The notes under the pieces: model-generated | The model's database searches: none | Seen by the model: the letters and a program-made list of their open reading frames with translations, nothing else | Told to the model about the DNA's origin: nothing | In this document: positions 198 through 19,362 of the stretch, in pieces | How positions within the stretch are numbered: the first letter of the stretch is position 1 | Layout: the number at the start of each line of letters is the position of its first letter | Made by a program: the position numbers and the translations under genes | Origin: Candidatus Woesearchaeota archaeon | GTDB taxonomy: Archaea > Nanobdellota > Nanobdellia > Woesearchaeales > DSVV01 | Reading direction: 5' to 3' | Length of the DNA stretch: 64,000 nucleotides | NCBI GenBank assembly: GCA_018657385.1 | Contig: JABHXF010000023.1 | Coordinates: 1,297-65,296, forward strand

Positions 198-3100
198 ATG
201 GGAAAAAAGAGGTTATTCCAATTAGGTGTAATAGTATTAATTTTGTTATTTAGTAGTTCAATTTCTTTTGGTACTAAGTTGGTTCAATCTAGTTCTCCTG
301 CTCTTGGAATTTTTAATGAATTAACAGAAGAATGTAAGGGTACCAACAGGTTATTTTTAGAGATGTTTGTTGGTTGTATAAGATATGATAATGAAGAAGG
401 TTATGTTTTGGGAATTCCTTTTTATAATTCAGAATTTTTTACTGATTTGGGTACAGGAAATGTTATTGAAGGAAAAAAACCATTACCCCCCTTAACAGGG
501 ATATGGGCAAATTATCCCAATACTTTTGCCAAAGAACCAACATTATCTATACCATATTATGACAACCCTAGTAATATAAGAAAAGCAAGAATGTATGAGG
601 CATATAGTAAGGTGTTACCTGATGGAACAACCTTTAATGGTGCTTGTAGATTATTTGCTTATTATAAACATGATTATTGCAATGATGAGGTTGTTTTTCA
701 TGAAGAAATTATAAAAGAAGATAAAACTTTTTTTTGTTCACAACCTCAACCAAAAGATACTTTTCCATGGCCAGAAGAACAATATGGTTTTGGTGAACCT
801 GTTTCAAGAGCATTAAGTTTAAAAAATCAATATCTTTATTCAGTTGATTGGGATAATGTTCCAAGTGATTGTAATAATTTAAAAGGTACTTCTAATGGTA
901 ATTCTTGTTGTGGTGACGATTATATGTGGATAATGAATAGTGTACATAACATAGATGAGACAGTAGACAAGAATATTGATGATTGGTGTTTATATAGTTA
1001 CATTGATGAAGATGAAGAAGCATTGTTTGACTTTCATGAAGATCAGTTTGGTTTTGAAGATGCAGCAGTTGGTCCACATCCATATCGGAATGGAGTTTAT
1101 TGTACTCCTCTAAGATCTATTGCTGCCGCTGGTGATATACAAGAGATTCATTATGCATATGATTCTAAATTATTACTTTATTCTCCAGATTCTGATGCTG
1201 AAGAGGACAGATTATTTAGGTATTATTATGATGATCCTGGAACAACAACAGATGTTGGATTATGGGAAGAACCAAATCTAAACCCTCGTTATTGTCATCA
1301 TTATTTTTTAGAAGGAACAGGAGATATTTTTGAATGGACAAACTCTAAACAAGCTGGAGAGATCCATTATTTTGATGTTAAGGATGATTCAAACAATGAT
1401 GGTATCTCATCATCAAACATTCCCAAGAAAGTTGACAATGATAAGAAATTTGTTTTAAATCCAAAAGCACCAGATTATATCTATGATGTCATGACTAAAA
1501 CTGATCATTTTCCTAAACTTAATGAGTATGATTCTGATGGTGATGGTATTGATTCAGATGATCTTAATATTTGTAATTTATTTTTAGATGGTGAATGGAC
1601 TGGCCATCATTGTTGTGGAAATAAGTTTGATGCTGGTGAAAATAAACAAGAAAGTTTTAATGATCCTTATGAAAATGGTAAACATTATTTCCTGGATAAA
1701 TCAGATCTTCAAGAATATGAATTTGAAATAAAAGAAGATAATCTTAAACCAAATAAAGCATGTTACAAAGGTGAGACAGCTAGTGGTGGTGAGATTGTTA
1801 ATGATCCTTATGATCCTATCTATTTTAAATCTGATAATTTAGGTAATTTTAATTGTGGTTATTTGAATGAAGGTGATATTTTAATGGGTATTTTTAATGG
1901 TGTTTCTTTGGGTGATCTTAATTTAGATGTTAAAACTTGTTGTAATATTAAATATCCTAATTTTAAGTTAAACCCAAAACAAGTTGGTACCACAGAAAAG
2001 AATGGTTTTGACTGGGATCTTTATGATTGTGGGCATGTTGCATCTTTGTTAAATGAAAAAGGTACATTAAAATATTGTGTTGATGAAGAAAGAAGGAAGG
2101 AAGAATTAATTCTCGGTAAAACTATTGATTTAGATCATATTGGTTTAAAATATACATATGATGCTCTCCAAGTTTCTACTGATTATTTATTATTTGGTTC
2201 TGTTAATGATGCACCACATCCTTTAGCATTAAAATTAAATATTGGTGACAATGGAATAAATGATAATGTTTATAACAAATGTGAATCAACATATCTAACA
2301 AAAGATTATCACATGCTAGAAGATGATTATGAAGACAACGACGTATTCTATTATTGTCATACAAATAATTCCTGGTTATCAATACCTATTTCAGACCAAC
2401 AATTAAGTAAAGGAACTAGTTCAGCACCAACACCTTTTGGTATGCTAGGAAGAATACCTCAAGAAGGAGATAAATTATATGAGGTAGATGAACCCAAAGA
2501 GATTGGTTTTGCTCATGCTAAATCTTCAGGTTGTTGTTTTGAAAATGAATGTTGGACAGGAAAAAAATGTGTTCCAAATGGTTATATTTTTGAAGACGTG
2601 GATGTAACACACACATGTAGTTATGGTGATTGGGGTGTAGGGGATCCTTCTTATAATTGGTATGATGAACAATTTGATGGAGACACTAGTGTTGCTATAG
2701 GTGTTCAATATTGTACAGATAAGTGGAGTTGTGCATGTCCTAAGGATGATAAATATTCTGCCATAACATCAGAAGAAGATGGCTGGACAATTGATGAATG
2801 TGAAAAATATACAACTCCAGGTAAATGGTGTACAAGATTCCCTTGGACATATGTTGGAGATAGATTCTGTGAAGTAACAGATCAAACAAATATAGTTGAT
2901 GCTGACACTTATGAAGAGGCAGCATGGACTACAAGAACAAAATATTTAGCAACTGCAATGTTAGATATTCCTACAACTGATAACTATGTTTTACATTGTG
3001 ATGATCCTGGAAATATATTTAATTTTTATCCACAAGCTAGCAAGTATTGGGATGAATATATTAAAGATGGGATGTTTTCAGAAAATTATAATTATGATAT

Positions 3101-4271
3101 TATGAATAATTTCTGTGTTTTATTAATTAATCCTGGAGATAATGAAGAAGTTTATGTTGGAACAACTCTTAATCCTTTATTGGATTATAGTTCAGTAACT
3201 CAAAGTCTTTATAGTGATGAATCAGAAGAAAACATAGATACAGAATGTTTTGATGATAATGGTGAAGAAGATTATTGTACTGCAACATTTGGCGATGTGG
3301 ATGCAGGTCCAACATTTGTTTGTTACAGGCCATTAGTTAGTAGTGCAGGACAATGTAAACTAAAACCTGGAAGTCAGGAAGCATGTGATGATTATTATGG
3401 TGGCTTAAATATGGGTGAACATACTTGGGAGGCTGATGATATTAATGATCCAGATACATTTGGTGTTTGTATTCCAAAGGGTCCTGATTTTATGGAAATG
3501 TTAAATGTTACTGAATACATGACTCAGATTTTGTATGGTGAAGATGATAAAAAAGGTTTAGTTAATAGTCCTTATTTATTTAATCAAGACCAAGGGGCAG
3601 ATCCAGACTTTTGTGATGAAACAGCAGAACTAACTAATTTCGCATCTAATACTGATTTTTTAATGTTTAAACAATGTGATGAAACTAATATTGCCTATAA
3701 TGACGTGGCAAAAGCAATAATCTTTACAAAAAAGGCTGGCATAGTTAATCCAATAACCTTAACTTACCAACAAGTTCATAATTCAAAATTAACAACTTAT
3801 GCAGATGAATTTAAACAATTTGTAGTGGATAATGCAGTAGAAATTCAAGATTGGGGAGAAAATATTGATTTAATGAAATCTATTAGTGACTTTGATAGGA
3901 TCTATTATTATCAAGACGCTAGTAGAAAAATATTTGGTATGTTAGAAAGAAAATCAAACCCATTACTTAGTCCATCAAGTAATGATTATGCAAATAAACT
4001 TGAATATTTTTATGCAATTAAATATGAAGGATTTGATAATCTATTCTATAATTATGATACAACTTTAGGTGAGAAAAAATGTTCTATTGTAAAAGATGAA
4101 TATGCACCATTTAAAGACATTGGTTGTTTCAGAGAAGATGCTTTATTGTTCCCAAATAATTATTTCTTAATCTCTCCACCAATGGAAAATTATTATTCAG
4201 ACAATAATGGTAATCCATACATATCAGAGTTCTGGTTTGATTTAACTGCAAAGTTAAGAGTAATAAAATGA
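198..4271 (+). CDS. Giant exported, acidic, cysteine-rich surface protein (1357 aa); no family recognised
   Basis: Uninterrupted 4.07-kb ORF. The N-terminus MGKKRLFQLGVIVLILLFSSSISFG looks like a Sec-type signal. The body is rich in D/E/N/Y/C, with vicinal-Cys motifs (SCCGDD, HHCCGNK, SGCCFENEC). The stop overlaps the next start (ATGA at 4268-4271). Confidence 0.8.
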   Translation: MGKKRLFQLGVIVLILLFSSSISFGTKLVQSSSPALGIFNELTEECKGTNRLFLEMFVGCIRYDNEEGYVLGIPFYNSEFFTDLGTGNVIEGKKPLPPLTGIWANYPNTFAKEPTLSIPYYDNPSNIRKARMYEAYSKVLPDGTTFNGACRLFAYYKHDYCNDEVVFHEEIIKEDKTFFCSQPQPKDTFPWPEEQYGFGEPVSRALSLKNQYLYSVDWDNVPSDCNNLKGTSNGNSCCGDDYMWIMNSVHNIDETVDKNIDDWCLYSYIDEDEEALFDFHEDQFGFEDAAVGPHPYRNGVYCTPLRSIAAAGDIQEIHYAYDSKLLLYSPDSDAEEDRLFRYYYDDPGTTTDVGLWEEPNLNPRYCHHYFLEGTGDIFEWTNSKQAGEIHYFDVKDDSNNDGISSSNIPKKVDNDKKFVLNPKAPDYIYDVMTKTDHFPKLNEYDSDGDGIDSDDLNICNLFLDGEWTGHHCCGNKFDAGENKQESFNDPYENGKHYFLDKSDLQEYEFEIKEDNLKPNKACYKGETASGGEIVNDPYDPIYFKSDNLGNFNCGYLNEGDILMGIFNGVSLGDLNLDVKTCCNIKYPNFKLNPKQVGTTEKNGFDWDLYDCGHVASLLNEKGTLKYCVDEERRKEELILGKTIDLDHIGLKYTYDALQVSTDYLLFGSVNDAPHPLALKLNIGDNGINDNVYNKCESTYLTKDYHMLEDDYEDNDVFYYCHTNNSWLSIPISDQQLSKGTSSAPTPFGMLGRIPQEGDKLYEVDEPKEIGFAHAKSSGCCFENECWTGKKCVPNGYIFEDVDVTHTCSYGDWGVGDPSYNWYDEQFDGDTSVAIGVQYCTDKWSCACPKDDKYSAITSEEDGWTIDECEKYTTPGKWCTRFPWTYVGDRFCEVTDQTNIVDADTYEEAAWTTRTKYLATAMLDIPTTDNYVLHCDDPGNIFNFYPQASKYWDEYIKDGMFSENYNYDIMNNFCVLLINPGDNEEVYVGTTLNPLLDYSSVTQSLYSDESEENIDTECFDDNGEEDYCTATFGDVDAGPTFVCYRPLVSSAGQCKLKPGSQEACDDYYGGLNMGEHTWEADDINDPDTFGVCIPKGPDFMEMLNVTEYMTQILYGEDDKKGLVNSPYLFNQDQGADPDFCDETAELTNFASNTDFLMFKQCDETNIAYNDVAKAIIFTKKAGIVNPITLTYQQVHNSKLTTYADEFKQFVVDNAVEIQDWGENIDLMKSISDFDRIYYYQDASRKIFGMLERKSNPLLSPSSNDYANKLEYFYAIKYEGFDNLFYNYDTTLGEKKCSIVKDEYAPFKDIGCFREDALLFPNNYFLISPPMENYYSDNNGNPYISEFWFDLTAKLRVIK

Positions 4272-6730
4272 AAACTAAGAAATCACAAATGGCTATTTTC
4301 ATGATTCTAGGTATAACAATTGTTATGTTAATTGGATTAGCAATGTATGGTGCAAGCAATGCTGATTCTGGGCATTTATCAACAAAACAAAAACAAATGG
4401 AAGAATTATTTATTGGCAAGGGGAAGTATACAACTTATATTCAAAGTTGTTTAGATCAAGCAACAAAAAATGCATTATACTTAGTTGGACAACAAGGTGG
4501 TGCAATTTATTCTGATTCTAACTTCGACGATGCAACACCAATTCCAGGAGGAACAAAGGCTATTGATTATCATGAAACAGATGATGGGTTAAGAATCTAT
4601 TATGGTTTAACTGCACCTCCAATACCAACAAAAACAGAAAATAAAATGTTAAAGTATCCATTTACAAATACTCTTCCTTCAGAACCATTTCTTAGTCCAG
4701 ATTCAAGTGTTTATGGTGATTCAACCCCATTTTTTGAAAATTTTCCAAATCCTTTAATTTCTTTATGTGATTATCATGGTCCTAATTCTTTAGATGGTGA
4801 AAATATTGAATGTGGTACTGGTCCTTATAGGTATGACAGCACTTTATTAACAGACCATAATAGTGTTCAAGAATATTTACAATATTACATTACACAAAAA
4901 ACAGATGAATGTATTAAATTAGAAGCTCTTCCCGAATTACAAGGTTTTGATATTGAAAAAGAAAATATTGATGTAAAAGTTACAATGGCTGCATCTACAA
5001 TAACTTCAAAATTAAGTATGAATCTTTCTATTACAGATAATCAAACTCTACCTAAAATAGAAATAAGTGATATTACTATTGAGAAGAATGTAAGATTATT
5101 AGAGATGTTTCAAATATTACAAGATATAATTCTTGAAGATTCTAGAAATATTTTCTATGACATTAAAGGCACGGATATTTGTGGTGTTTCTTCACAAGGT
5201 CCTTGCTTAAAAGCAAACATGGTTATTGAAAAAGAACAAGTTAGTCAAGGGGATGATTGGATTATAAAAATAACAGACACAGAATCTTTGTTAGATGGGA
5301 AAGAATTTACTTACCAAGTTGTTTTTGAAAACAGATATCCAGCATTAGATTATATTACTCTAGATAATGTTAAACTAAAATCTCAACTTCAAGATTATGA
5401 TGCTGTTGCAGTACAAGGCATGACTTTAATTTTAGATCCTTATGGTTATGATCCTGATGAAGATTTTCATGTGGCTGAAGGATACATGGGTGAAGGTTAT
5501 ACTTATGAATTTGTTGGTGGGTATACAGAGTATTCACCTGGTGTTAATTCTGCATGCTTATCTGGAAATGCAAATTTAAACGTATTAGTAAGTAAACTAA
5601 ATTCAAATTCTTGCAGGAAACCATCCTCTCCCCCATTTACAACAGGTAAAAAAGTTGAATGGGTCTTGGGAAAAAAAGATGCAGGTGAACATATAATTAA
5701 TGTGAAAATTTGTGATATGTTAAATCAATGTGATGAACAAGAATTAAAAATTTTAGTTGTTCCTTTACTGATTTTTGATGGGGTTCCACAACCAGGGATT
5801 ATGCCAAGTAAATATTTATATAATTCACACAAACTTGCTGGTAGTTTTATCTATGAAACAGACCCTGGAGATACAATTACTTTAGGTATTAATAATGCAA
5901 TTCCTGTTTCTTATGTTCCAACTAGTGGCCCTATTGTACTTAACAATCCTTCTCCTGTAACAGATTTGTTAGAATATGCTAATCAACAATACCAAATTAA
6001 GCAACAGCTTGGAGATGTTGATGGAAAAAGCTTTACAACTATAATTACAAATCCTGACACAGGAGTTATAATTTATTATGATGAAAATGGTCAACCAATT
6101 GCTTATTCTATCGATGATGATGAACCTATCTTGTTTCCACCAGTTACTGAACAAACAGATGAAGAAATAAGTTATTATAATCTAGCAGAAGCATTAAAAC
6201 CAGGTGTTAATGTTTATCAACAACAAGAAGCAATTGAATTAATAGAAGAAGAAGAACAAGAAACAACACAACCATTACAAGACAAACCATTGGTTGTAGT
6301 TGTTGACGGAAATGTAAATCATGGTGAACATGAAATATATTTTATTGAAAATAATAATCCTGAATATCCTCAAATTTATTTAGTTACTCCTAATTATGAT
6401 GATATCAACTTACAAAATAAAGTTCCAATGGATGATCCTATAAGAAAAATGATTGGAGACGATGATGGGAAAGCTGATGCTCTTCCAGTAAAAATGGCAA
6501 TCTTTGGTACTGGTAGTGGTTGTAAAAATAATATTTGCATTTATCATTTTAATAATAATGAATGCTCACAACATGGATCTTATTATAAAAACTATTGTTT
6601 AAAAAGTAATGGTTGTTATTATGGTTTTAGTATAAATATTAATGAAGAAGGTGATGGGCATAGCATAGAACCTGCATCAATGAAAGAAGATTCTTGTTCA
6701 GAATGCACATCAAATGGGTGTATGAATTAA
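4268..6730 (+). CDS. Large prepilin-like (class III signal-like N-terminus) exported protein, 820 aa, Cys-rich C-terminus
   Basis: The N-terminus MKTKKSQMAIFMILGITIVMLIGLAMYG has a K-S-Q motif followed by a ~22-aa hydrophobic helix. The start is coupled to the upstream ORF by ATGA. A central Ig/PKD-like stretch is present (DPDEDFH...GEHIINVKICD). The C-terminal 90 aa are Cys-rich. Confidence 0.75.
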   Translation: MKTKKSQMAIFMILGITIVMLIGLAMYGASNADSGHLSTKQKQMEELFIGKGKYTTYIQSCLDQATKNALYLVGQQGGAIYSDSNFDDATPIPGGTKAIDYHETDDGLRIYYGLTAPPIPTKTENKMLKYPFTNTLPSEPFLSPDSSVYGDSTPFFENFPNPLISLCDYHGPNSLDGENIECGTGPYRYDSTLLTDHNSVQEYLQYYITQKTDECIKLEALPELQGFDIEKENIDVKVTMAASTITSKLSMNLSITDNQTLPKIEISDITIEKNVRLLEMFQILQDIILEDSRNIFYDIKGTDICGVSSQGPCLKANMVIEKEQVSQGDDWIIKITDTESLLDGKEFTYQVVFENRYPALDYITLDNVKLKSQLQDYDAVAVQGMTLILDPYGYDPDEDFHVAEGYMGEGYTYEFVGGYTEYSPGVNSACLSGNANLNVLVSKLNSNSCRKPSSPPFTTGKKVEWVLGKKDAGEHIINVKICDMLNQCDEQELKILVVPLLIFDGVPQPGIMPSKYLYNSHKLAGSFIYETDPGDTITLGINNAIPVSYVPTSGPIVLNNPSPVTDLLEYANQQYQIKQQLGDVDGKSFTTIITNPDTGVIIYYDENGQPIAYSIDDDEPILFPPVTEQTDEEISYYNLAEALKPGVNVYQQQEAIELIEEEEQETTQPLQDKPLVVVVDGNVNHGEHEIYFIENNNPEYPQIYLVTPNYDDINLQNKVPMDDPIRKMIGDDDGKADALPVKMAIFGTGSGCKNNICIYHFNNNECSQHGSYYKNYCLKSNGCYYGFSININEEGDGHSIEPASMKEDSCSECTSNGCMN

Positions 6731-6816
6731 TCTAATTATTTTTAATAACCACTATTAAATAGATATAATAGTTAGTAAAATATATAAATCAATTTAATAA
6801 ATATACTATTATTACT

Positions 6817-9800
6817 ATGAAATTTAAAAAAGGGTTGATATTAATAGTATTAGTTTTAGCTATTTTAATTCCTTTTTCTTTGGCTGAACAATGTTATATT
6901 CCTAGTGCTAAGACTTGTGAAACAATTGATGAAGATTTTACTCTTGAAATGTGTGAAAATACTGTTGAAGATGGTGGTGCTGAAGGAAAAATTGCAGTTG
7001 ATGAATGTGATACTGGTTGTTGTTGTGAATTTCATCAATTAGATGATAGTTATACTGCTTCTACAGGATATTTTAAAGAAACCTGTACTGAAATTTCTAA
7101 TAATTTATTTTTTAAGGATATTCCATGGGTTACGTTATGTGAACAACAATGTCAAGAGCTAACTGATATTTTACAAGCAGAGGGTGGCTTACCAGCATGT
7201 ATGGATAGTATTGATAATGATGAAGATGGTTTAATTGATATGGCTGATATAGATTGTTTAAGCAAAGAAGATACATCTGAACATCCTTCTGCAGAAGATA
7301 CTGAATGTAGCAACACAGTTGATGAAGATGGTGATGGGTTATTAGATTATTTTGGATTATATGAAGACGGTGGTAGCTATTCTGATTATTTGGATGCTGG
7401 AATTTTACCTGATCCATGTTGTACAAAAGAGTTTGGTGTTTCTGAACTTTGTGATTTTCCTGAATGTGATGTTGGTAATAATACTGAATTATGTACTTGT
7501 GGTGGGAATGTTTGTGGTTTCCCATGGCAAATAGAGGGTAATGAAGATTATGATTATGAAAATAAAAAAGATCTAGATCCATATAGTAAATATGTAACTG
7601 GTTCATATTGTTGTAATGGTCAATGTAGTTTTACACCTTGTGGAGATTGTATAGAAGGCCAAGAAACATTTAAAAAAACAGCAGAAGGTTTAGAAACATA
7701 TACTTGTGAATGTGATAGTGATGGTGTTTGCGCATATGGTGAACCTGTTATTACAAAGTTAGGGTTTCCTGAATATTGTATTGATTCTTTAGGTTTTGAT
7801 GGTTATGGTATGGATGAAGACGAGGATAATAAACCAAATTGTTTAGATACTGATTGTTTTGGTGTGTCATGCAGTAATGAACCTTTAAATGTAGAAAACA
7901 AATTTCCTGGTGGTTTAGTTATTCCTCCGAAAACTTGTTCATTTGATAAAAACAAATATCCTGATTATTTTAATCCAATCACAGCTAAGGAAGAACCAAT
8001 TGCATATTATGATGCTAACATAGAAACATGGGTGTGTTGTTTCCCTGACTCAAATAAAAAATCAAGAGTTAAGGATTGTAATGATGATAGTGTTCCTGAT
8101 ACTTGTGGGGAATGTGCATGTTTAAATTCACATAAAGAAGCACAACAATTAACAGTTGATCATGTTCTTGGCAAGCAACAATTAAACATTAGTTATTTCT
8201 TTGCATGTCAACATGAAGATATTAGACTTAAACTAATGAGGTGTGATAATATTCCAGCACAATGTGGTGTTGTTAATGGTGAAGTCCAATTAGAAAATAG
8301 TAATTTATTTACAGATATTAGTGATGGGTTAACATGCGATCTTCTTGATAATGGAATTGTTCAAGAAGACCAAGAAAATTGTCTAACTGAAGATGGTTTA
8401 TTACAACCTGGATTATTAACTGATTTTGTTGGGCTCTTTGATAATAATATACAAACAAAAAAACATTATACTTATATTATGAAATCAATTTATCCAGATG
8501 GTATTGTAAGTTTTTCAGATCCTGTACATATAGAAACAGGGAATAATCAAATTTGTTTTGATAATACTGGACATTTTTGTATTCGAGATGAAGATTTTCA
8601 TGAAGATTCTGCAAAATATAGGTATTATTGTGATGATAATAATGATTTACATGGTGGCCAAGATGCAGATGATGAATATATTTGTAATGATAATGAAGTT
8701 TGTGTTGAATATTTAACTGGTTCAAGTGGTAAAGAAACAACTTGTCAAACAAAAATGCCTTGTATATTCTGTGGTTCGCCATTTAACACATATGGTTTTA
8801 TAGATAATGCAATGATTGATCTTACCACATTCCCTGATGGTTTTATGGAATTAAATAAAGAAGATTTTAATCCTGATTGTACTATCTCAGAATTATGTTA
8901 TTATGATTATACAGATACAATAAAGGATGCTTATGAAGATTGTTCAAGAGTAGATAATTGTTATGATTATAGGTCAGAAGATGCATGTCAGGGTTATGCA
9001 GGCGAACAAAATAATAAATGTTTAACTCATTCATGTACATGGAATGCCACTAAGATGGATCTTATTGATGATCTTGATGATGCTTTAAGTGGATTAGATA
9101 TTAATGTTGGCTATTGTCATGATCCAGATGAAAATGTTAAAAACTGTCAACTATGTAATAAATTATCAAATAATGAAGTATTTGCGTATTGCAGTATTGA
9201 TATGTGTCGTGGGTTTACTACAGATGACACAGATTGTTACTTTAATTCTACAATGGAATGTGATTCTTCTAATCATTTAACCTGTACAAATTATAATCAA
9301 GGTTATCCAGGCAATTTTAATAAAATTAGAACTGATTGTTTAGGTGAATATGAACAACCACTAGTCTTAGATATAATCCATGATCAGAATGATAAACCAA
9401 TTTGGGGAACAAATGCAGTAAAAGTTAAAGGAAATGATCTTCTTGGTTTTGGTGTTTGTGATTTTGATGAAAGCCAACAAAAATGTTTTAAAGATGGTAA
9501 TGATGATAATAAAACAGATCCAAAAGGAAAAAAAGGATCAGATATTACTCCACCTGTAACAGAAGTTATTGCACCTGCTAATTCAGATAAGATTGAATTA
9601 AAATTTGCAATTAATGATCCTATTGTGGATGGGAGATATCATTCTGACCCTGAGGATATTAAAACATATTATTGTTTCCCTAGTGATAATCATATTCCTG
9701 AAGTTATACAAGATGGACTTATGGAAGGTAATTTACCTGGGTATTCAGATTTTGAAAGTTATAATTATGATGGCGATGGATTTTTAACTGAAAAAGAATT

Positions 9801-12800
9801 AGGTGAATGTTATCCTAATAACTTATACAAACCAGATGAAGACCCATTAATTCCAAATGGTAATGGTTATCACAAAGTATTTTACTATTCAATTGATGAA
9901 GCAAAGAATATTGAAGAAGTTAAATCATTTTTATTTAATGTTGATATTAAACCACCTGAAATAACTATCACTCCTTATGTTACTAATGATTTATCAGCCC
10001 CTTATGATGATACACAAATTTTATTTTCAGTTGAATTAGATGAATCAGCAAAAGAATGTTATGATATCTTTGAAGATTATGTTGGTGTTAAAGAAATTAA
10101 TTATGAAGGTGGTCAATATTTCCAAGCTAAATATACAGGACTAAAAGATGCAAGTTATTTATACACTGTTGTTTGTACAGATTTCTTAGACAATACAATT
10201 AATAAATCTATTACTGTAAAAATTGATGCTGATCAGGAAATTCAATCACCTCAGCCAACAGGGGTATTAGATTATAGTCCTGTAAACTTAGAAATTATCA
10301 CATTAAAACAAGGTGATTGTAGGTTTGGCCAATCATCAACATTTGCTTTACTAACTTCATTTGGCGAACCAGAACAAATTAGTACAGGTCCTAGTTTATA
10401 CAAATACACTCATCAACTTTCATTAGAGGAACAAGGGTTACAGAAATATAGAGTTATGTGTCAATTTCCAGGGTTGTCTGGAGAAAGAGAAGATGAAATC
10501 CAATTTGTTCTAGACACAACTCCTCCTACAACTAGATTAACAGATCCAAAAGGTAATGATTTTAATACATCTCAATGGTATTCTGGAGAACATAGCGGAG
10601 ATATGGCTTATTTACAATGTGTAGATGAACCTGAGTTTGGTTTTGGTTGTGATGAATTACAAACACACTATTGTTTACAAAAAGGATCATTGAAATGTCC
10701 AACAAGATTAGAATTCCCTGGTCAAGAAAAAGATACTAGTTATCCATTATATACTCCAGTTAATATTCCTAATATTCCTGATGAACAATGGTTATGTTAT
10801 CATTCTGGAGAATTAACTGATAATAATATGGGTGGTTTAATAGAAGACAAAACTTGTGTTAAATTATTAATGGATTCTTCACAAGGTCCTGATATTAATG
10901 TACCATTATTAAAACAATATACTGATTTAACTAATCCTTTCTTTTATGGTTCTCCTGTGCTTGAACAAGGTATAACTGTTGCATTTTTATTAGAAGGGGA
11001 AGTAATTGATGGTGATGCAGCAACATCTCCTCCAGATAATAAATTAAATATTCAAGTTTATCCTTTATCTGAAGATTATTTAGTTGGTGTTGCATTATTA
11101 ACTGCCTTAACTGAAGAAATTGCACTATTAGAAGAAAACCAAGAATTTGAAATTGGTGATCTTGGTGCATCAGAATTATTTGAAGATATCCCTTCAAACA
11201 ATGCATTTTCTCAGGAAATTAATTTAATGCCTGGTCTGAATAAAATTTTATTAGAAGCAGTTGATAGATCTGGTGAATGGACAAGTAAAGAATATTATAT
11301 TATGGTTAGTCCATTTAATGGTGAGTTATTAGAAATTCTTGAACCACCTAAGGGTGTTTCCAAAGAAAAAGAATTTGATTTAATTGTAAAAACATCAGAT
11401 GATCTGCCACCACCAGAAAAATGTATGTTATCACAGAATAAAAATATAGGTTATAATTATGAAATGGAACAAATTGAACCAAGGAAATTTAAGAACCATT
11501 TTAATTTATCAGGAATGATTAGTGGTATTTATTATACTACTTTTATCAGATGTGATTTCCCTGGTGGTATATCTGATGAAACTTTTGTTGATATAATTTG
11601 GGATAATAGTGCACCTGCTATTGCAAAATTCTTTATTAATCCAAGTGATGGGAAGGAACCACCAGCTGTTGTTGAACCTCCTTTTGTAACAAACTTAACA
11701 GTTGTTACAGACGATAAAACAAGATGTAAATATTCAAAAACACCTGGGACTGATTATTTTTCAATGACCCCGTTTGATGATTATGAAACAAAAAATCTTA
11801 GTTATGTAAATGAACATAAACTAACTAATCTAATTGATGGTCAACAATATACTTATTATGTCAGGTGTGATAATGGTCCAACAGAACCAGCTTCAACTCA
11901 TATTTCTGAAGAATCAGTATTAACATTTATGGTTGATACAACTCAATTTACTGGCTTTGAATTAATTACTCCTGAAAAATTCACTAGCGACACTTCAATA
12001 GACTTTGAATTACATACTACAAAACAAGCAAGTGATTGTACTTTTGGTCCAGAAGAAGAAACAGTAGATCTTTACTTAATGGAAACTGTTGCATCTGGTG
12101 TGGATGCATTTAAAGTCCATTATGGTGGTCCAATCTCATTATTAGAAGGCGAACACACCTTTTATTTTAAATGTCTAACTTTATCAGAAGGCCATGTAAT
12201 GGATAATTACAAATTTTCAATTGATGTAACTCCACCATCACTTGCTATTAAAACAGATCCTTATACTTCTTCATTATCTACATTATCTGCGAGTTGGGAA
12301 GGTGAAGAAGAATATAGTGAAGTTGAAGAATATAATTATTCAATTGGTACTGAACCAGGTCTGGCAAATATTTATGAGTGGGATAATACTGCTGATTTAA
12401 ATGAAAAAGAAAACAATCTTAATCTTTCAAACGAAACAACTTATTATTGGAATGTAATTGCAATGAATTCTGTTGGATTATGGAGTGATATTGTAAGTAG
12501 TAATGGTACTTATGTTGATTCCACCTATAATCCTGGTTATGAAACTTTTGAAGATAATGTAGCAGTTTGCGCTAATAGTATTAAAGACTTAGGAGAAAGC
12601 GATCTTGATTGTGGTGGGAATTGTGGTAGTTGTAGTAATGGTAAAAATTGTGAAGTCAATAATGATTGTGTTAGCAGCCAATGTATTAGTGGGATTTGTG
12701 TCGGATCTTCATGTGATGATGGTATATTAAATCAACAAGAAGCAGATATTGATTGTGGTGGTCCATGTATTAGTTGTGATAATGGTATGGATTGCGATGT

Positions 12801-13497
12801 TAATAGTGATTGTAGCTCTGGATATTGTAATGTGGGGACTTGTCAACAACCAACTTGTGATGATGGTATTAAGAATGGGGTTGAAATTGGTGTTGATTGT
12901 GGTGGAAGTTGTTTAGGTGAATGTGATATTCCAGTTGGTGGGGAAGTAGATGAAGATTGTTATGATGGTATAAAAAATCAAGATGAAGAAGGAATTGATT
13001 GTGGTGGTGCTTGTAGTAATTGTGAAGAAGCACCAGAACCAGTTGAACCTAAGGATGATTCATCATTCTGGTGGGTATGGTTAATTTTATTATTAATTAT
13101 TACAGGTCTTGCAGGTGGAGGGTATTATTATTATCAAAGTGTTTTCCTAAAACACACACCATTGAATAAGACGCAAACAAGAGCACAACAAATTCAACAA
13201 TCTCAAAGAACTCAACAACCACAACAAGTATGGGGTTCTACAAAAAAATCTCAAAGACAAAGAGTAACTTCCTCTATTTCACCAACTAAATCAACTCTAC
13301 AATCAATCTCACAAAGTTTAGGGGCTACATCTAATACTTTTTCTAAACCAAGTTATAGTAAAAGAAGACAACAAAAACAAAACAAAAGAAATGCAATTTT
13401 AAAAGCATTTGATGAAAAACCTAAAAAGAATGAAAGCAAAATCAAATTAAAATTAAAAGATCTGGATGATAAGTCACCAAAGACTAAGAAAAAATAA
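6817..13497 (+). CDS. Giant mosaic surface adhesin-like protein (2226 aa) with C-terminal TM anchor and cytoplasmic Q/S/K-rich tail
   Basis: 6.7-kb ORF with signal MKFKKGLILIVLVLAILIPFSLA. DNDEDG/DEDGDG acidic loops flanked by Cys lie at 7195-7360. Six modules each start with D-x-[TK/SA/TQ]-P/F-type boundaries (DITPP, DIKPP, DTTPP, DNSAP, DTTQF, DVTPP) across ~9540-12540. An FN3-like segment lies at 12271-12520. Four CGG-type Cys repeats lie at 12568-13029. The TM helix FWWVWLILLLIITGLAGGGYYYY lies at 13066-13134, followed by a ~120-aa basic tail. Confidence 0.85.
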   Translation: MKFKKGLILIVLVLAILIPFSLAEQCYIPSAKTCETIDEDFTLEMCENTVEDGGAEGKIAVDECDTGCCCEFHQLDDSYTASTGYFKETCTEISNNLFFKDIPWVTLCEQQCQELTDILQAEGGLPACMDSIDNDEDGLIDMADIDCLSKEDTSEHPSAEDTECSNTVDEDGDGLLDYFGLYEDGGSYSDYLDAGILPDPCCTKEFGVSELCDFPECDVGNNTELCTCGGNVCGFPWQIEGNEDYDYENKKDLDPYSKYVTGSYCCNGQCSFTPCGDCIEGQETFKKTAEGLETYTCECDSDGVCAYGEPVITKLGFPEYCIDSLGFDGYGMDEDEDNKPNCLDTDCFGVSCSNEPLNVENKFPGGLVIPPKTCSFDKNKYPDYFNPITAKEEPIAYYDANIETWVCCFPDSNKKSRVKDCNDDSVPDTCGECACLNSHKEAQQLTVDHVLGKQQLNISYFFACQHEDIRLKLMRCDNIPAQCGVVNGEVQLENSNLFTDISDGLTCDLLDNGIVQEDQENCLTEDGLLQPGLLTDFVGLFDNNIQTKKHYTYIMKSIYPDGIVSFSDPVHIETGNNQICFDNTGHFCIRDEDFHEDSAKYRYYCDDNNDLHGGQDADDEYICNDNEVCVEYLTGSSGKETTCQTKMPCIFCGSPFNTYGFIDNAMIDLTTFPDGFMELNKEDFNPDCTISELCYYDYTDTIKDAYEDCSRVDNCYDYRSEDACQGYAGEQNNKCLTHSCTWNATKMDLIDDLDDALSGLDINVGYCHDPDENVKNCQLCNKLSNNEVFAYCSIDMCRGFTTDDTDCYFNSTMECDSSNHLTCTNYNQGYPGNFNKIRTDCLGEYEQPLVLDIIHDQNDKPIWGTNAVKVKGNDLLGFGVCDFDESQQKCFKDGNDDNKTDPKGKKGSDITPPVTEVIAPANSDKIELKFAINDPIVDGRYHSDPEDIKTYYCFPSDNHIPEVIQDGLMEGNLPGYSDFESYNYDGDGFLTEKELGECYPNNLYKPDEDPLIPNGNGYHKVFYYSIDEAKNIEEVKSFLFNVDIKPPEITITPYVTNDLSAPYDDTQILFSVELDESAKECYDIFEDYVGVKEINYEGGQYFQAKYTGLKDASYLYTVVCTDFLDNTINKSITVKIDADQEIQSPQPTGVLDYSPVNLEIITLKQGDCRFGQSSTFALLTSFGEPEQISTGPSLYKYTHQLSLEEQGLQKYRVMCQFPGLSGEREDEIQFVLDTTPPTTRLTDPKGNDFNTSQWYSGEHSGDMAYLQCVDEPEFGFGCDELQTHYCLQKGSLKCPTRLEFPGQEKDTSYPLYTPVNIPNIPDEQWLCYHSGELTDNNMGGLIEDKTCVKLLMDSSQGPDINVPLLKQYTDLTNPFFYGSPVLEQGITVAFLLEGEVIDGDAATSPPDNKLNIQVYPLSEDYLVGVALLTALTEEIALLEENQEFEIGDLGASELFEDIPSNNAFSQEINLMPGLNKILLEAVDRSGEWTSKEYYIMVSPFNGELLEILEPPKGVSKEKEFDLIVKTSDDLPPPEKCMLSQNKNIGYNYEMEQIEPRKFKNHFNLSGMISGIYYTTFIRCDFPGGISDETFVDIIWDNSAPAIAKFFINPSDGKEPPAVVEPPFVTNLTVVTDDKTRCKYSKTPGTDYFSMTPFDDYETKNLSYVNEHKLTNLIDGQQYTYYVRCDNGPTEPASTHISEESVLTFMVDTTQFTGFELITPEKFTSDTSIDFELHTTKQASDCTFGPEEETVDLYLMETVASGVDAFKVHYGGPISLLEGEHTFYFKCLTLSEGHVMDNYKFSIDVTPPSLAIKTDPYTSSLSTLSASWEGEEEYSEVEEYNYSIGTEPGLANIYEWDNTADLNEKENNLNLSNETTYYWNVIAMNSVGLWSDIVSSNGTYVDSTYNPGYETFEDNVAVCANSIKDLGESDLDCGGNCGSCSNGKNCEVNNDCVSSQCISGICVGSSCDDGILNQQEADIDCGGPCISCDNGMDCDVNSDCSSGYCNVGTCQQPTCDDGIKNGVEIGVDCGGSCLGECDIPVGGEVDEDCYDGIKNQDEEGIDCGGACSNCEEAPEPVEPKDDSSFWWVWLILLLIITGLAGGGYYYYQSVFLKHTPLNKTQTRAQQIQQSQRTQQPQQVWGSTKKSQRQRVTSSISPTKSTLQSISQSLGATSNTFSKPSYSKRRQQKQNKRNAILKAFDEKPKKNESKIKLKLKDLDDKSPKTKKK
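12568..13029 (+). repeat. Four tandem Cys-rich modules, consensus C-[DY]-DG-I-x-N-x-x-E-x-x-[IV]-DCGG-x-C, inside the 2226-aa ORF
   Basis: Read from the translation: ...SDLDCGGNCGSCSNGKNCEVNNDCVSSQCISGICV / CDDGILNQQEADIDCGGPCISCDNGMDCDVNSDCSSGYCNVGTC / CDDGIKNGVEIGVDCGGSCLGEC / CYDGIKNQDEEGIDCGGACSNCE. Confidence 0.8.
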
Positions 13498-13522
13498 TTA
13501 AAATATATAGAAGGTGTAAAAC

Positions 13523-13993
13523 ATGAAATCACAAGTTCAACAAATGTTTTTTTATATTTTGGCATTATTTGTAATTGGAATGATTTTATTATTGGGGATT
13601 AAGTATGTTGGAAAAATAGTAGAACAAATAGAAACAATTGATTTAGTAGAATTTAAGACTAGCTTAATTGATGATTCCGATGTTATGTTATCTAAATATG
13701 GTAGTTGGCAGAAAAAGTCATATACTGTTCCAGAAGGTGTTAAAAAAGTATGTTTTTTCACGATTAATGAAGATCAACACCCCTGTGTTGGAGATTTAGA
13801 TTTTATCATGTGCGATGCATGGAACGACGGGACACAAAATGTCATGACTATTCCTTGGTCAGATACTTCAATAAACCTTACAAAGATGACTGTTGATAGT
13901 ACAAAAGATTATTTGTGTTTTGATGCTATTGACAGAAAAATTACAATTAGGATGACAGGTAAAGGTAATGGTGTTTTAATATCAGTGCCATAA
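13523..13993 (+). CDS. Prepilin-like protein (156 aa), candidate minor pilin
   Basis: The N-terminus is MKSQVQQMFFYILALFVIGMILLLG (K-S-Q followed by a hydrophobic helix). A GGTG Shine-Dalgarno lies 8 nt upstream. The gap to the giant ORF is only 25 nt. Confidence 0.7.
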   Translation: MKSQVQQMFFYILALFVIGMILLLGIKYVGKIVEQIETIDLVEFKTSLIDDSDVMLSKYGSWQKKSYTVPEGVKKVCFFTINEDQHPCVGDLDFIMCDAWNDGTQNVMTIPWSDTSINLTKMTVDSTKDYLCFDAIDRKITIRMTGKGNGVLISVP

Positions 13994-14106
13994 CCTTATT
14001 ATATGTAATTTAATTGTGCTTAATTTAATTATCTCTATTTTTGTCATGCACAATTTAATTATGTATTGTTATTAATATTATTAAGACTAGAAAAACTAAA
14101 TACAAA

Positions 14107-15189
14107 ATGAAGCATTCTAAAAAAGCGGTAATTGAAATGCAATTCAATTGGATATTTATCTTTGTAGTTGGCTCTGTTATTTTATTGTTTTTTGTGTTTA
14201 TTGGTAAATCATACATGGAAAGTTCCAATATGAAACTATCAGGTAAAATCCTATTTGAAATAGATTCAATTATGAAAGGTGCAAGTTCATCTTCAAAATC
14301 ATCATCTGAATTAGAAATACCAAAATTGGAGTTGGGATTTACTTGTTATCCTGAATGTAGTGAAGAAGGTTGTGATTCTGGGTTTGCTATTGGAAACACG
14401 GGAGTAAATAAACCAACTCCTCATGATATTATTTTTGCCCCAAGTGAAATCAAGAGTGATTTTTTATATACATGGACCTTAGATTGGACATCACCATTTA
14501 GAGTTGGAAATTTTCTTTATTTAACAAGTCCATCAATAAGGTATGTATTTGTTTATAATGAGGATTATTCTATGTCTAAAACCATGGCTGAAAAAATATA
14601 TAACTTATTTTTAGATAATGAATTTATTACTGTTGATTTATACAGCGAAGAAGAATTAATGGATGACTTTGAAGCCACTAATCATAAACATGTAAGATTT
14701 GTTTTCTTTTATACATTTGAAGATGATCTTGACTTAGATATTGGCAAATCTGATTTTGATTTAGTTATTTTTAGTGATCCTAATCCAAACTTTAATGGTC
14801 ATGTATTGTTTTTAAGTGAAGATATGGCTGCAGAAACAGGTGATTTTGATGATTCTGTTGGTTATTTTGGAAAAGAATCAATGGTCGGTGCAATTTTTTC
14901 AGAAAATCAAGATTTTTTCGTTTGTAATATGCATAAGGCATTTAATAGTTTAGAAAGAATATTTGGGATTTATAAGATAAAAGCCCTTTACTTAAAGACT
15001 CAAGCAGGTGCATGCGGTGGCATTTATGAAAATTTTGCTGCCTTTCCTCTTCCTGAAAATTTTCAATATCCAAGTAGTTTTGAAGAAGGTGATTATGAGA
15101 AAATATCTAGTTTATTAAAATCTATGTCATCATCAGCAGAAAAAGCAAACAAAAATGCAATATTTAACTCATGTCCTAGACTTTATTAA
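14107..15189 (+). CDS. Prepilin-like protein (360 aa), candidate minor pilin
   Basis: The N-terminus is MKHSKKAVIEMQFNWIFIFVVGSVILLFFVFIG (K-A-V-I-E followed by a hydrophobic helix). It is co-directional with the rest of the cluster. Confidence 0.65.
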   Translation: MKHSKKAVIEMQFNWIFIFVVGSVILLFFVFIGKSYMESSNMKLSGKILFEIDSIMKGASSSSKSSSELEIPKLELGFTCYPECSEEGCDSGFAIGNTGVNKPTPHDIIFAPSEIKSDFLYTWTLDWTSPFRVGNFLYLTSPSIRYVFVYNEDYSMSKTMAEKIYNLFLDNEFITVDLYSEEELMDDFEATNHKHVRFVFFYTFEDDLDLDIGKSDFDLVIFSDPNPNFNGHVLFLSEDMAAETGDFDDSVGYFGKESMVGAIFSENQDFFVCNMHKAFNSLERIFGIYKIKALYLKTQAGACGGIYENFAAFPLPENFQYPSSFEEGDYEKISSLLKSMSSSAEKANKNAIFNSCPRLY

Positions 15190-15229
15190 CTAATTAAATT
15201 ATATCACTCAAGAAAATAATACAAGAAAA

Positions 15230-15748
15230 ATGAAAAAAACAAAATCACAATTAAAAATAGGCGAATCAATAATGGTTTTAATTATTTTTTTCATTATTTT
15301 AATGGTTGGTTTAGTTTTTTATGCTAAAGTTCAAAGTCATATTGCGATTAAGGATGCAGAGGAATTTAATGCAAAAAGAACAATTGATATGGCATTATCA
15401 GTTAAGTTTATGCCTGAACTACAATGTACTGTACAATCAACAGAACAATTTGATTGTATTGATTTATTAAAAATAAATGCTTTTAAAGCAATTATGCTAA
15501 ACACTGAAAAACAAAGTTATAGAAGATATTATGCAAGGATGTTTCCCAATGCAAAAATTACTATCAAACAATCTTTTGTTCCATTTGGAGAAGGTATTGA
15601 AGGTGGAGAAATAATGTTATTTGATAATACATATGTTGATGAGGTAAATGCATCAGGTGTAATAAAAATGTCCATACCTGTAACTATTTTTGATCCAATT
15701 AGGGATTCAAACAGCTTTGGATTTATTGTACTTGATACTTATAGTTAA
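15230..15748 (+). CDS. Prepilin-like protein (172 aa), candidate minor pilin
   Basis: The N-terminus is MKKTKSQLKIGESIMVLIIFFIILMVGLVFYA. The gap to the previous ORF is 40 nt. Confidence 0.65.
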   Translation: MKKTKSQLKIGESIMVLIIFFIILMVGLVFYAKVQSHIAIKDAEEFNAKRTIDMALSVKFMPELQCTVQSTEQFDCIDLLKINAFKAIMLNTEKQSYRRYYARMFPNAKITIKQSFVPFGEGIEGGEIMLFDNTYVDEVNASGVIKMSIPVTIFDPIRDSNSFGFIVLDTYS

Positions 15749-15806
15749 TATTAATCTCCTAATCAATAATATACCAAACTTAATATATTAAACAAGAAAA
15801 TTAAAA

Positions 15807-16406
15807 ATGAATACAACAACAAAAGCACAAACAGAAATCATGGGGTTAATGATTATTGTAGTTATTATTACATTAATTATTTTGTTTGTTATTTCTGTTG
15901 TTTATTTTAAACCAGTAGACGATCCTTTAAACAGCTTTATCCAGAAAGATCTTTCAACAGGTATAATCAGTGCTATGTTAAAAACAGATTCAGGATGTAC
16001 AAAAGATACCACACTAGAAGATTTGTTTATAGACATTACTAAAACTCCACTTGGTACAATTCAATGTACTTCTGAATTAACTAATGTTTTAAGTGCAAGA
16101 TATCCAGATAATGAATTTTGTCAAGATATTATTATGAGCCGAGGTGCTCTAGAGTGTGGTGTTTCTCAAATCTTGTATACTTTACAAATAGACATTAATC
16201 GGCCATATCATTTTAAGGTCAAAAGTAATGATAATAAATTTCTAGAAACAGATGGTCTTATTCCTTTTCCACCAAGTAAATATTTAGAAGAAGAATTTTC
16301 AAGGGCAACAAGTGTTGATGTTACTCCATATTCATTACCTCTTTATCCTAGTATCGATGTTTTAGAAATTTGGTTGTGTATAGGTGGTGAATGTCCAAAT
16401 ATTTAA
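15807..16406 (+). CDS. Prepilin-like protein (199 aa), candidate minor pilin
   Basis: The N-terminus MNTTTKAQTEIMGLMIIVVIITLIILFVISVVYF carries K-A-Q-T-E. This resembles the K-G-Q-x-S-x-E start of euryarchaeal DUF361-type pilins. Confidence 0.7.
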   Translation: MNTTTKAQTEIMGLMIIVVIITLIILFVISVVYFKPVDDPLNSFIQKDLSTGIISAMLKTDSGCTKDTTLEDLFIDITKTPLGTIQCTSELTNVLSARYPDNEFCQDIIMSRGALECGVSQILYTLQIDINRPYHFKVKSNDNKFLETDGLIPFPPSKYLEEEFSRATSVDVTPYSLPLYPSIDVLEIWLCIGGECPNI

Positions 16407-16560
16407 TATTTGTTTTAATTAAGACTTGTTTTAATTAAAATGGTTATTTAAGTTAAAGTATACATAATATTTATATATAAGGATGGTAATAATAAGGATA
16501 TAACATGGATTATTATAATATTTAATAAACATAAATAAACATAACAAATGAGGTGAAAAA

Positions 16561-16839
16561 ATGTTTAAAAAAGGAGATATATCACTTAATATGATTATTA
16601 TTGCAATAATTGCATTATTGGTGTTAGTTATTATTGCAGCTGTATTTACAGGTAGATTAGCAATGTTTAATGTTGGGATATCTGATTGTAATTCAATTAA
16701 AAATGCACAATGTATTTTTGAATGTGGTGATGGTTTTGTGGCACATCCAACAGGTAAATGTTTAGATGATGGAAAGAAAGTTCCAGATGTAAAATGTTGT
16801 ATTCCTGTGGATTATTCAGAAATAGATGAATATTCTTGA
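16561..16839 (+). CDS. Small prepilin-like protein (92 aa, six Cys), candidate major pilin
   Basis: The N-terminus is MFKKGDISLNMIIIAIIALLVLVIIAAVFTG (K-G-D followed by a hydrophobic helix). A strong SD (GAGGTGA) lies 6 nt upstream. It has its own AT-rich upstream region with TATA-like ATTTATATATA (~16470) and a T-rich tract right after the stop. The short globular part has 6 Cys, including VKCCIPV. Confidence 0.7.
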   Translation: MFKKGDISLNMIIIAIIALLVLVIIAAVFTGRLAMFNVGISDCNSIKNAQCIFECGDGFVAHPTGKCLDDGKKVPDVKCCIPVDYSEIDEYS

Positions 16840-19208: not shown

Positions 19209-19330
19209 TCAATAAACTCTAACAAATTATTATAATCACCCATAAACTCTCATATACTATTCTAAACACTCATGGGCCATCATAATCTCATATTAATACG
19301 TCTATGGATATACATAATAGAAATTGAATA

Positions 19331-19340
19331 AATATATATA
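19331..19340 (+). promoter_or_regulatory. TATA-like box for the 19363 ORF
   Basis: AATATATATA is centred about 27 nt upstream of the ATG at 19363. Confidence 0.45.
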
Positions 19341-19362
19341 TCCTAATGGGATTTATTTTTTT

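Follow-up and report, generated by a model that had tools for sequence, protein, structure and literature searches.

We analysed a 64,000-nucleotide stretch of contig JABHXF010000023.1 (NCBI GenBank assembly GCA_018657385.1), referred to below as the window, which derives from a marine Woesearchaeota (DPANN) archaeon and encodes a protein of 2226 amino acids (aa), here called the giant. The giant occupies positions 6817..13497 of the plus strand as a single uninterrupted frame, and all features described below lie on this strand. It is predicted to be a single-pass, Sec-exported type I membrane protein with a large, acidic, Cys-rich ectodomain and a basic tail that bears a conserved motif. Throughout an archaeal lineage, its gene and those of at least five prepilin-like proteins make up an invariant cluster on one strand. 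The window has a G+C content of ~29% and is archaeal, encoding RFC, FEN1, a PAN-type AAA ATPase, ribosomal protein S4e, SecY and archaeal-type tRNA synthetases, and its closest relatives are labelled Candidatus Woesearchaeota or Nanoarchaeota.

At least 20 metagenome runs from marine or seawater sources contained a near-identical stretch. One of these (X1) provided a single 10.5-kb contig across 6700-13600 with 8 substitutions and 0 gaps, and three more marine runs had no insertions or deletions (indels) across the gene. Among the polymorphic sites of the four marine runs in 6700-13600, 10 of 12 were synonymous and the other two were L>I and V>I. In addition, a 2210-aa ortholog from a different sample was 64% identical end to end, with 58-64% identity in the N-terminal head and 73-80% in the stalk modules that follow it. 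Since four independent assemblies were free of indels and 10 of the 12 single-nucleotide polymorphisms (SNPs) were synonymous, we conclude that the gene is intact and under purifying selection. As a separate observation, all 12 SNPs were confined to 8034-8811 (780 nt, aa 406-665 of the head) while the remainder of the gene was invariant in those four runs; this segment may have been recombined or may reflect strain-level mosaicism.

The initial annotation of this DNA, which was made from the sequence alone, had named an assembly or frameshift artefact as an outcome that would overturn its reading of the giant. Such an artefact, including a chimera that fused a secreted protein with an unrelated membrane protein, would be in line with the finding that 30 of 75 related loci encode the head separately from the anchored part. 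On the other hand, the one-gene form was present in 45 of the 75, and the gap-free independent contig, the three indel-free runs, the nearly all synonymous SNPs and the full-length ortholog from another sample all speak against it. We rejected the artefact on these grounds and regard it as extremely improbable.

Domain organization of the giant

The protein begins with a Sec-type signal peptide (6817..6885, aa 1-23; MKFKKGLILIVLVLAILIPFSLA) that is likely cleaved before EQ and that coincides with a hydropathy peak at aa 1-28. The N-termini of the ortholog and relatives resemble this signal peptide, and the class III (type IV pilin-like) pattern was found in only 16 of 79 giants. From the Cys map and composition, a Cys-rich and strongly acidic head follows at 6886..9531 (aa 24-905). 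It holds ~70 of the 112 Cys residues of the giant, many of which are invariant across five family members, including relatives that are only 23-27% identical. From aa 688 onwards, the head contains a family-conserved 'CYYDY...CYDYRSEDAC' region from which two homologs (P0010 and P0007) are collinear with the giant, and a beta-sandwich was modelled by AlphaFold2 (AF2) at ~aa 443-643.

Two Cys-flanked acidic loops lie near the start of the head (7198..7353), where the initial annotation had seen them and had likened them to Ca2+- or metal-binding thrombospondin type-3 repeats. Loop 1 (CMDSIDNDEDGLIDMADIDC) covers aa 128-147 (nt 7198-7257) and loop 2 (CSNTVDEDGDGLLDYF) covers aa 164-179 (nt 7306-7353). 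In a single-sequence search of the PDB with phmmer, only the C-rich domain of teneurin-4 (7plp) was matched, at E 0.34. Residues 126-148 align to the pattern C-x-D-S-x-D-N-D-x-D-G-L-x-D-x-x-D-x-D-C, and loop 1 is identical at the positions aligned with D840, D843, N844, D845, D847, D851, D854 and D856 of teneurin-4. In the structure 7PLP these eight residues are among those that coordinate Ca2+, and two of the Ca2+ sites have been described as thrombospondin type-3-like (PMC9058538). The conservation of these positions supports the proposed assignment of loop 1 to the thrombospondin type-3/teneurin C-rich Ca2+-binding type as far as the sequence allows.

The agreement is partial in several respects. 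The Cys that corresponds to C852 of teneurin is replaced by Met142 in loop 1, and the NCBIfam acidic double-disulfide repeat NF033662 (acid_disulf_rpt) scored 26.4 bits, which is under its cut-off of 41. BLAST returned bacterial matches at 1e-10 to 1e-5 that span 2-5% of the query; they arise because the acidic repeat is multi-copy in Myxococcota lipoproteins.

Downstream of the head, the initial annotation had described six repeated modules on the basis of recurrent boundary motifs. All six motifs of the form D-x-[TS]-x-P/F are present (at aa 909, 1047, 1233, 1596, 1707 and 1803), but profile searches did not resolve them into an equal sixfold repeat and instead gave five homologous modules together with a distinct module M0, an insert region X and an FN3 domain. 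The five homologous modules (M1-M5) are each ~95-110 aa long with a Cys pair spaced by 39-47 residues, and they match one another across modules at E 1.9e-12 to 1e-3. M0 (9532..9948, aa 906-1044) matches an OmpL47-type domain at a sub-threshold E 1e-4 and ends in the Big-type sequence 'YYSIDEAKN'. It also contains an EF-hand-like loop (NYDGDGFLTEKE, 9763-9798, aa 983-994) that fits D-x-[DNS]-x-[DNS]-G-x-[ILV]-x-x-x-E, for which the profile matches were both weak (EF-hand_6 at E 0.014; EF-hand_7 at 22.5 bits against a cut-off of 30), a one-residue deletion was found in the ortholog and no flanking helices were seen in the AF2 model.

Modules M1 and M2 (9949..10512; aa 1045-1135 and 1136-1232) have one Cys pair each (Cys 1081/1120 and 1168/1215) and were matched by the M5 profile at E 1.8e-4 and E 6.7e-5, respectively. 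They are followed by region X (10513..11328, aa 1233-1504, ~270 aa), which has six early Cys and is then Cys-free up to a Big-like 'AVDRSGEW' strand, and for which the family profile matches the BIg domain of SiiE (2yn3) at E 2e-3. Modules M3, M4 and M5 (11329..12222; aa 1505-1595, 1596-1706 and 1707-1802) are predicted two-Cys beta-sandwiches that share the pattern '...C.YS...G.Y.Y.V.C.D...VD.T.P', and their region is conserved in several homologs (P0003, P0012 and P0015-19).

The segment proposed to be FN3-like (12223..12540, aa 1803-1908) had no match to Pfam fn3 when the single giant sequence was used, while its family profile matched the FN3 domains of titin, contactin and midline(-2) with a best E of 3.1e-9 and with 'SASWEG' and 'YYWNVIAMN' in alignment. 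It was modelled by AF2 as all-beta with a predicted local distance difference test (pLDDT) value of 80-90, so that the initial assignment to FN3 held. The AF2 model of aa 905-2104 was usable only at ~aa 1504-1904, where it is all-beta and composed of beta-sandwiches with pLDDT 60-90. Using Foldseek, this model was related to Ig and FN3 arrays, with the grappling-hook protein GhpA of Aureispira as the top match and with contactin, PTP-delta and cytokine receptors among the others; query-normalised TM-scores were low (0.08-0.15), which we attribute to the arbitrary inter-domain geometry of the model. Taken together with the titin-type FN3 match (3e-9) and the SiiE BIg match (2e-3), these arrays relate the modules to adhesion folds, and the stalk modules are predicted to be adhesion-type beta-sandwiches of the Ig/FN3 kind.

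The last ectodomain element consists of four 'DCGG' Cys repeats (12565..13026, aa 1917-2070), namely two full 48-aa units with 8 Cys and two half units with 4 Cys, built on the motif C-x2-G-x2-N-x2-E-x3-DCGG-x-C-x2-C. A profile of the first repeat matched all four at E 5e-22 to 3e-7, the Cys residues are invariant across the family, and DCGG was found in 54 of 61 related giants. No match to aa 1912-2075 was obtained in profile searches of Pfam, NCBIfam and the PDB, even at E<=5. The four repeats recognized in the initial annotation are thus real, but their designation as disintegrin-like was rejected, as PF00200 and all other profiles were unmatched; only the start of the motif, 'C-x-x-G-x-x-x-x-x-E-x-x-DCG', recalls a disintegrin. 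For the giant as a whole and for ten of its sub-segments, searches of Pfam and NCBIfam gave sub-threshold matches only (EF-hand, acid_disulf_rpt and OmpL47-type).

Membrane anchor and basic tail

By hydropathy, a single transmembrane (TM) helix that ends in GGGYYYY is located at 13066..13134 (aa 2084-2106). The helix is 78% identical in the ortholog, with Y invariant in the C-terminal alignment of the family, and in distant relatives of 25-40% identity it ends in G-G-(G)-Y-Y/F-x-Y and is followed by a basic linker rich in P, Q and K and by two short motifs. The remaining 120 residues (13135..13494, aa 2107-2226) form a basic tail that is predicted to be cytoplasmic by the positive-inside rule, with 29 K+R against 6 D+E, compared with ~19% D+E in the ectodomain. 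It consists of a Q/S/K linker, then motif A, RNAILKAF (13387-13410, aa 2191-2198; consensus R-x-x-[LIMV]-[FLIM]-x-x-F), and then a degenerate motif B, IKLKLKDL (13441-13464, aa 2209-2216; consensus [DE]-D-x-F-x-K-L-x-x-[ILV]). Both motifs align across the family, and in comparison with the ortholog the linker was 29% and the motif region 54% identical.

The TM helix and the Q/S/K-rich tail of ~120 aa, which the initial annotation had reported together with the warning that orthologs might lack both, proved to be general features of the family. In addition to the 64% identical ortholog, a set of 67 giants was obtained independently from loci traced by way of a neighbouring gene, and in 61 of them a C-terminal TM helix is followed by a tail of 120-400 aa with 15-36% K+R. 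Motif A was found in 47 of the 61 tails, while in 500 residue shuffles of the tails it occurred 0.8 times on average and never more than 4 times. It sits 71-159 residues past the start of the TM helix, and within 116 residues in 46 of the 47 tails. This fixed distance, together with the excess of 47 over 0.8, argues for a specific interaction, and the conservation of the motif gives indirect support to the suggestion that the tail has an inside partner.

Some relatives have longer tails (L028, L040, L065, L012 and L014; P0013; L006:16315-19518) with several copies of motif B ([DE]D.F.KL..[IL]). These tails end in an extra helical domain of ~55 aa with two '(K)ISK.D[VA]..[LV]L' repeats, which is absent from the giant of the window. 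Searches of Pfam with the tails and with this extra domain gave nothing significant and only weak winged-helix-like matches.

A search of the locus for a conserved gene that might encode a cytoplasmic partner yielded a single candidate, an AbrB/PhoU-like gene in 15 loci, which was rejected as the tail partner because it is present in so few of them. In the window, this gene (16949-17836, 295 aa) has a weak AbrB/MazE-type N-terminal domain and follows the pilin-like cassette described below, as it does in the ortholog locus and in the 15 other loci, where it is sometimes inverted. Its product is possibly a local regulator.

The pilin-like cassette and its conservation

Directly behind the giant are five genes for small to medium-sized proteins, which we designated cassette A (13523..13993, 156 aa), B (14107..15189, 360 aa), C (15230..15748, 172 aa), D (15807..16406, 199 aa) and E (16561..16839, 92 aa). 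The N-termini of all five are archaeal class III-like, in that a few basic residues and [KR]-[GAS], often with Q, are followed by ~20 hydrophobic residues. Members of all five families, of comparable length and in unchanged order, were found behind the ortholog, behind two other homologs (P0012, which is 29% identical, and P0013) and behind a split gene (P0010).

We then used cassette protein B as a probe to search for further loci, taking one genome per species, and obtained 217 confirmed loci. Among the best 80 of these, nearly all were labelled Woesearchaeota, Nanoarchaeota or Nanoarchaeia. Gene-order and family counts, which cover 76-83 loci recovered through cassette B, gave the order A-B-C-D-(E)n. 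B was the most frequent gene (76 loci), followed by C (74), D (71), A (63) and E (49), and E was often present in 2-5 copies. A giant of the same family was found directly upstream of the cassette in 75 loci. The class III motif was detected in 63 of 67 A, 78 of 83 B, 71 of 77 C, 67 of 72 D and 30 of 31 E proteins, whereas a cytoplasmic control family taken from these loci showed it in 0 of its 14 proteins. In the databases, family B goes only by the name 'hypothetical protein'. The giant of the window has every trait of this locus family, namely the signal peptide, two-Cys modules, FN3, DCGG, TM helix, motif A tail and the cassette (13523-16839).

Cassette B (P0171) is recorded publicly as a 319-aa protein with a later start codon, by which the class III-type N-terminus is lost; the 360-aa start is the likely one because all homologs keep the longer N-terminus with its QF[NT]WIF motif. 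In terms of labels, many of the locus-bearing contigs (L011, L017-L023 and others) are titled 'uncultured Methanosarcinales archaeon' and two are titled bacteria (L052 and L058; Binatia and Aminicenantes), all of which look mislabelled or mis-binned.

In 30 of the 75 loci, the giant is split into two adjacent genes that encode a secreted protein of ~1850-2480 aa without a TM helix and a protein of ~1000-1200 aa with its own signal peptide, TM helix and tail. The N-terminal half of the window's giant aligns to the secreted partner (P0010, aa 688-1241) and its C-terminal third to the anchored partner (P0015, P0018 and P0019). By these alignments, the gene of the window appears to be the one-polypeptide form of a pair made of a head and an anchored stalk, and the split in the other loci suggests that it unites two parts that work together.

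The family as a whole is very large. An exhaustive profile search yielded 3,924 cluster representatives at E<=1e-30, many of which span the modules through the TM helix and tail, and the gene itself is accordingly not unique. A protein homolog listing was confined to approximately the length of the query (1693-3162 aa for the 2226-aa query and 535-1126 aa for a 766-aa query, for which the parent was not returned), so that the family size taken from that listing is an underestimate.

Two upstream genes also belong to the conserved neighbourhood. A 1357-aa Sec-secreted Cys-rich protein of the 'f589' family (198..4271) and an 820-aa protein with a class III-type N-terminus, KKSQ followed by a hydrophobic stretch (4268..6730), precede the giant, and their families were found before it in the same order in many loci, with 1407-aa and 761-aa genes in the ortholog locus. 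The class III motif was present in 15 of 17 members of the 820-aa family. In a number of other loci (L001, L023, L032, L063, L066, L076-L079 and others), a second class III-type block was found 2-8 kb past the cassette in the arrangement F312 ... f311 - f309 - f170 - ~165 aa - f371, so that pilin-like genes can number more than 12 in a full locus; the first 30 kb of the window lack this block.

The initial annotation had treated the giant as a stand-alone adhesin and had overlooked that its gene heads a conserved pilin-like locus, which changes the functional reading. If the giant were nevertheless a stand-alone adhesin or a Ca2+- or metal-binding surface protein, the adjacency of the pilin-like genes would reflect shared regulation and the tail would serve in stop-transfer or membrane association and have no specific partner. 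Such a simple tail would agree with its basic character, which obeys the positive-inside rule, with the poor conservation of its linker (29% between orthologs) and with the lack of a conserved cytoplasmic protein in the locus, and one locus (L005) retains only cassette gene A. Co-regulation alone can hardly explain a gene order that is kept strictly down to 25-30% identity, however, and a partnerless tail would not account for a motif A whose distance from the TM helix is fixed and which 47 of 61 tails carry where chance would give 0.8. We thus consider a stand-alone function quite improbable.

Among the other genes of the window, a 1100-aa protein (22678-25980) matches the lytic transglycosylase (SLT) domain at aa 738-806 with E 6.9e-5, which narrowly passes the Pfam cut-off, and is possibly a cell-wall-degrading enzyme in a putative episymbiont. 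A 450-aa protein (19324-20676) has a T/S/P/Q-rich low-complexity middle of ~200 aa and no Pfam match. In ribosomal protein S5 (53718-54728, 336 aa), the Pfam domains begin only at aa 140, which implies an unusually long N-terminal extension.

Functional interpretation and comparison with known systems

On balance, we favour an interpretation in which a conserved, pilin-associated surface apparatus has the giant as its anchored adhesin or scaffold subunit. The protein would be exported through Sec, leaving ~2060 residues outside as a disulfide-rich fibre that is probably stiffened by Ca2+; disulfides are plausible because the source is seawater. In this fibre, a variable, Cys-rich and acidic head would be carried on a stalk in which Ig-like and FN3 beta-sandwiches are combined with DCGG repeats, and one helix would anchor the protein in the membrane. 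Inside, a disordered basic tail would dock a cytoplasmic partner through R-x-x-[LI]-[FL]-x-x-F. The giant would act together with the five class III proteins encoded directly downstream, for which the nearest functional analogue is the cooperation of PilY1 with minor pilins in bacteria, and its fast-evolving head would give binding specificity, most likely for the host cell surface. What we infer from these features is that the giant adheres, binds Ca2+ and cooperates physically with the pilin-like proteins, and that its tail binds a partner.

Several observations weigh against this interpretation. None of the sequence was present in the RNA runs of the same study. The AF2 model of the head (aa 24-905) had a mean pLDDT of 39, with the exception of model residues 420-620, and confidence was also low for region X and for the DCGG repeats. 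Loop 2 is incomplete, as the closing D-x-D-C is absent, and motif identity is the one feature that suggests Ca2+ binding by the loops. Likewise, the N-terminal motif is the sole mark of a pilin in the cassette proteins; 100 of them matched no family in Pfam, NCBIfam gave no pilin family either, and neither a pilus ATPase nor a platform protein nor a prepilin peptidase was found in the window and the 83 loci. Occurrence in hundreds of species looks more like that of a core envelope part than of an accessory adhesin. Finally, a C-terminal TM helix with a 120-aa tail is unlike the manner in which PilY1 rides on a pilus tip. A TM-anchored protein cannot do so, and cooperation with the pilin-like proteins, if real, would have to be of another kind; these proteins might, for instance, build a short pseudopilus by which the fibre is propped up or gated, or share a membrane complex with the giant.

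A bolder version of the same idea, which we put forward as a doubtful possibility, is a new kind of archaeal attachment organelle in which the giant spans the membrane as an integrin-like receptor or adhesin. Through its tail motifs (R-x-x-[LI]-F-x-x-F and D-x-F-x-K-L-x-x-[IL]) it would engage a machine of the cytoplasm, for example a type IV filament motor or a cytoskeletal or membrane-remodelling protein. Host binding would thereby be coupled, by force or by signal, to the interior of the symbiont, and erection or gating of the fibre would fall to a short pseudopilus made of the five pilin-like proteins.

The wide distribution could also be explained if the giant were the main envelope protein of the lineage and resembled those of surface layers (S-layers), with a stalk and TM anchor like SlaB, a Cys-rich head canopy like SlaA, and pilin-like proteins that aid the assembly or traversal of the layer. 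A uniform locus in at least 217 species genomes is what would be seen for a core envelope part; rapid sequence divergence is typical of S-layer proteins, and the adjacent genes for a secreted protein of ~2000 aa and an anchored protein of ~1050 aa in 30 of 75 loci mirror slaA-slaB. In Nanobdella aerobiophila, Ig-rich proteins with a C-terminal TM helix (MJ1_0707 and others) have been proposed as S-layer anchors (bioRxiv 10.1101/2023.10.27.564410), and S-layer-like Ig proteins have been noted in archaeal filament loci (bioRxiv 10.64898/2026.04.22.720090). On the other hand, we estimated ~15 N-glycosylation sequons in the 2226 aa, which is near chance; archaeal S-layer proteins do not usually have as many as 112 Cys or Ca2+-type loops; a long cytoplasmic tail with conserved motifs is no known S-layer trait; and searches of Pfam and NCBIfam returned no S-layer family. 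We consider an S-layer role, which is the leading alternative, unlikely, and retain the anchored adhesin or scaffold subunit as the favoured interpretation. If the S-layer role were true, it would be the first S-layer assignment for the lineage.

The general kind was known before, in the form of giant surface proteins rich in Ig folds in DPANN archaea and of adhesin-like proteins encoded next to pilin genes. New here are the family-wide anchor of TM helix and tail with conserved motifs, the fixed giant-A-B-C-D-E locus without motor genes, and the alternation between fused and split head and stalk; literature searches gave no description of the giant family, the cassette or the tail motif, and the cassette could not be linked to the DPANN-specific 'NEQ255' secreted family of Makarova. 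Woesearchaeota and their relatives are abundant, uncultured and ultra-small archaea that are thought to be attached to other cells. A locus made up of 'hypothetical' proteins in hundreds of species is thus a concrete candidate for an attachment or envelope apparatus in these organisms, in which the conserved tail motif offers a handle for finding an intracellular partner and the variable head is a candidate determinant of host specificity.

We lastly compared the giant with known systems. With the C-rich domain of teneurin and thrombospondin type-3 repeats it shares the acidic, Cys-flanked ligand set of loop 1, but it differs in having only two copies, Met in place of the internal Cys, an NF033662 score below the cut-off and a loop 2 that lacks D-x-D-C. 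With SiiE of Salmonella (PDB 2YN3/2YN5) it has in common strings of beta-sandwiches and acidic Ca2+-type sites, where the BIg profile match was weak (E 2e-3). SiiE is type I-secreted, however, and is without the TM anchor, the Cys-rich head and the DCGG repeats that the giant has.

The SlaA/SlaB proteins of Sulfolobales and the Nanobdella anchors resemble the giant in the Ig-rich ectodomain, the C-terminal TM helix and, in 30 of 75 loci, the pairing of a secreted with an anchored gene product. There is no sequence similarity to them, and the giant differs in its Cys-rich composition, Ca2+-type loops, few sequons and long motif-bearing tail, none of which has been described for them.

Large Ig-rich proteins that resemble adhesins, and whose function is presumed to be adhesion, are common in the type IV filament loci of archaea (bioRxiv 10.64898/2026.04.22.720090); the same work mentions no Woesearchaeota, no anchor of TM helix plus tail and no A-E cassette. 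The adhesin-like proteins of these loci (for example arCOG05616, arCOG07037 and UpsX) share with the giant the multi-Ig folds, a position beside proteins with class III signal peptides and a resemblance to GhpA. What defines the filament loci is the presence of an ATPase together with a platform protein, whereas the locus of the giant has neither.

In bacteria, PilY1 is a type IVa pilus adhesin that is encoded with four or five minor pilins (fimU-pilVWXY1Y2E). No match between PilY1 and the giant was found in Pfam and the PDB, either in sequence or in fold: PilY1 consists of a vWA domain and a beta-propeller and is without a C-terminal TM helix and tail, whereas the archaeal giant has both, is built from Ig/FN3 and Cys-rich modules and has no ATPase or platform gene nearby. 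What is shared with PilY1 and its minor pilins, and with the GspH-K pseudopilins of type II secretion, is one large non-pilin protein of adhesin type encoded on the same strand as four or five pilin-like proteins in a fixed order and size. The PilY1 cluster has in common with the present locus also a small pilin that is often multi-copy (E here) and a Ca2+-type loop on the large protein. The likeness to a PilY1-type tip adhesin is one of gene-cluster logic only.

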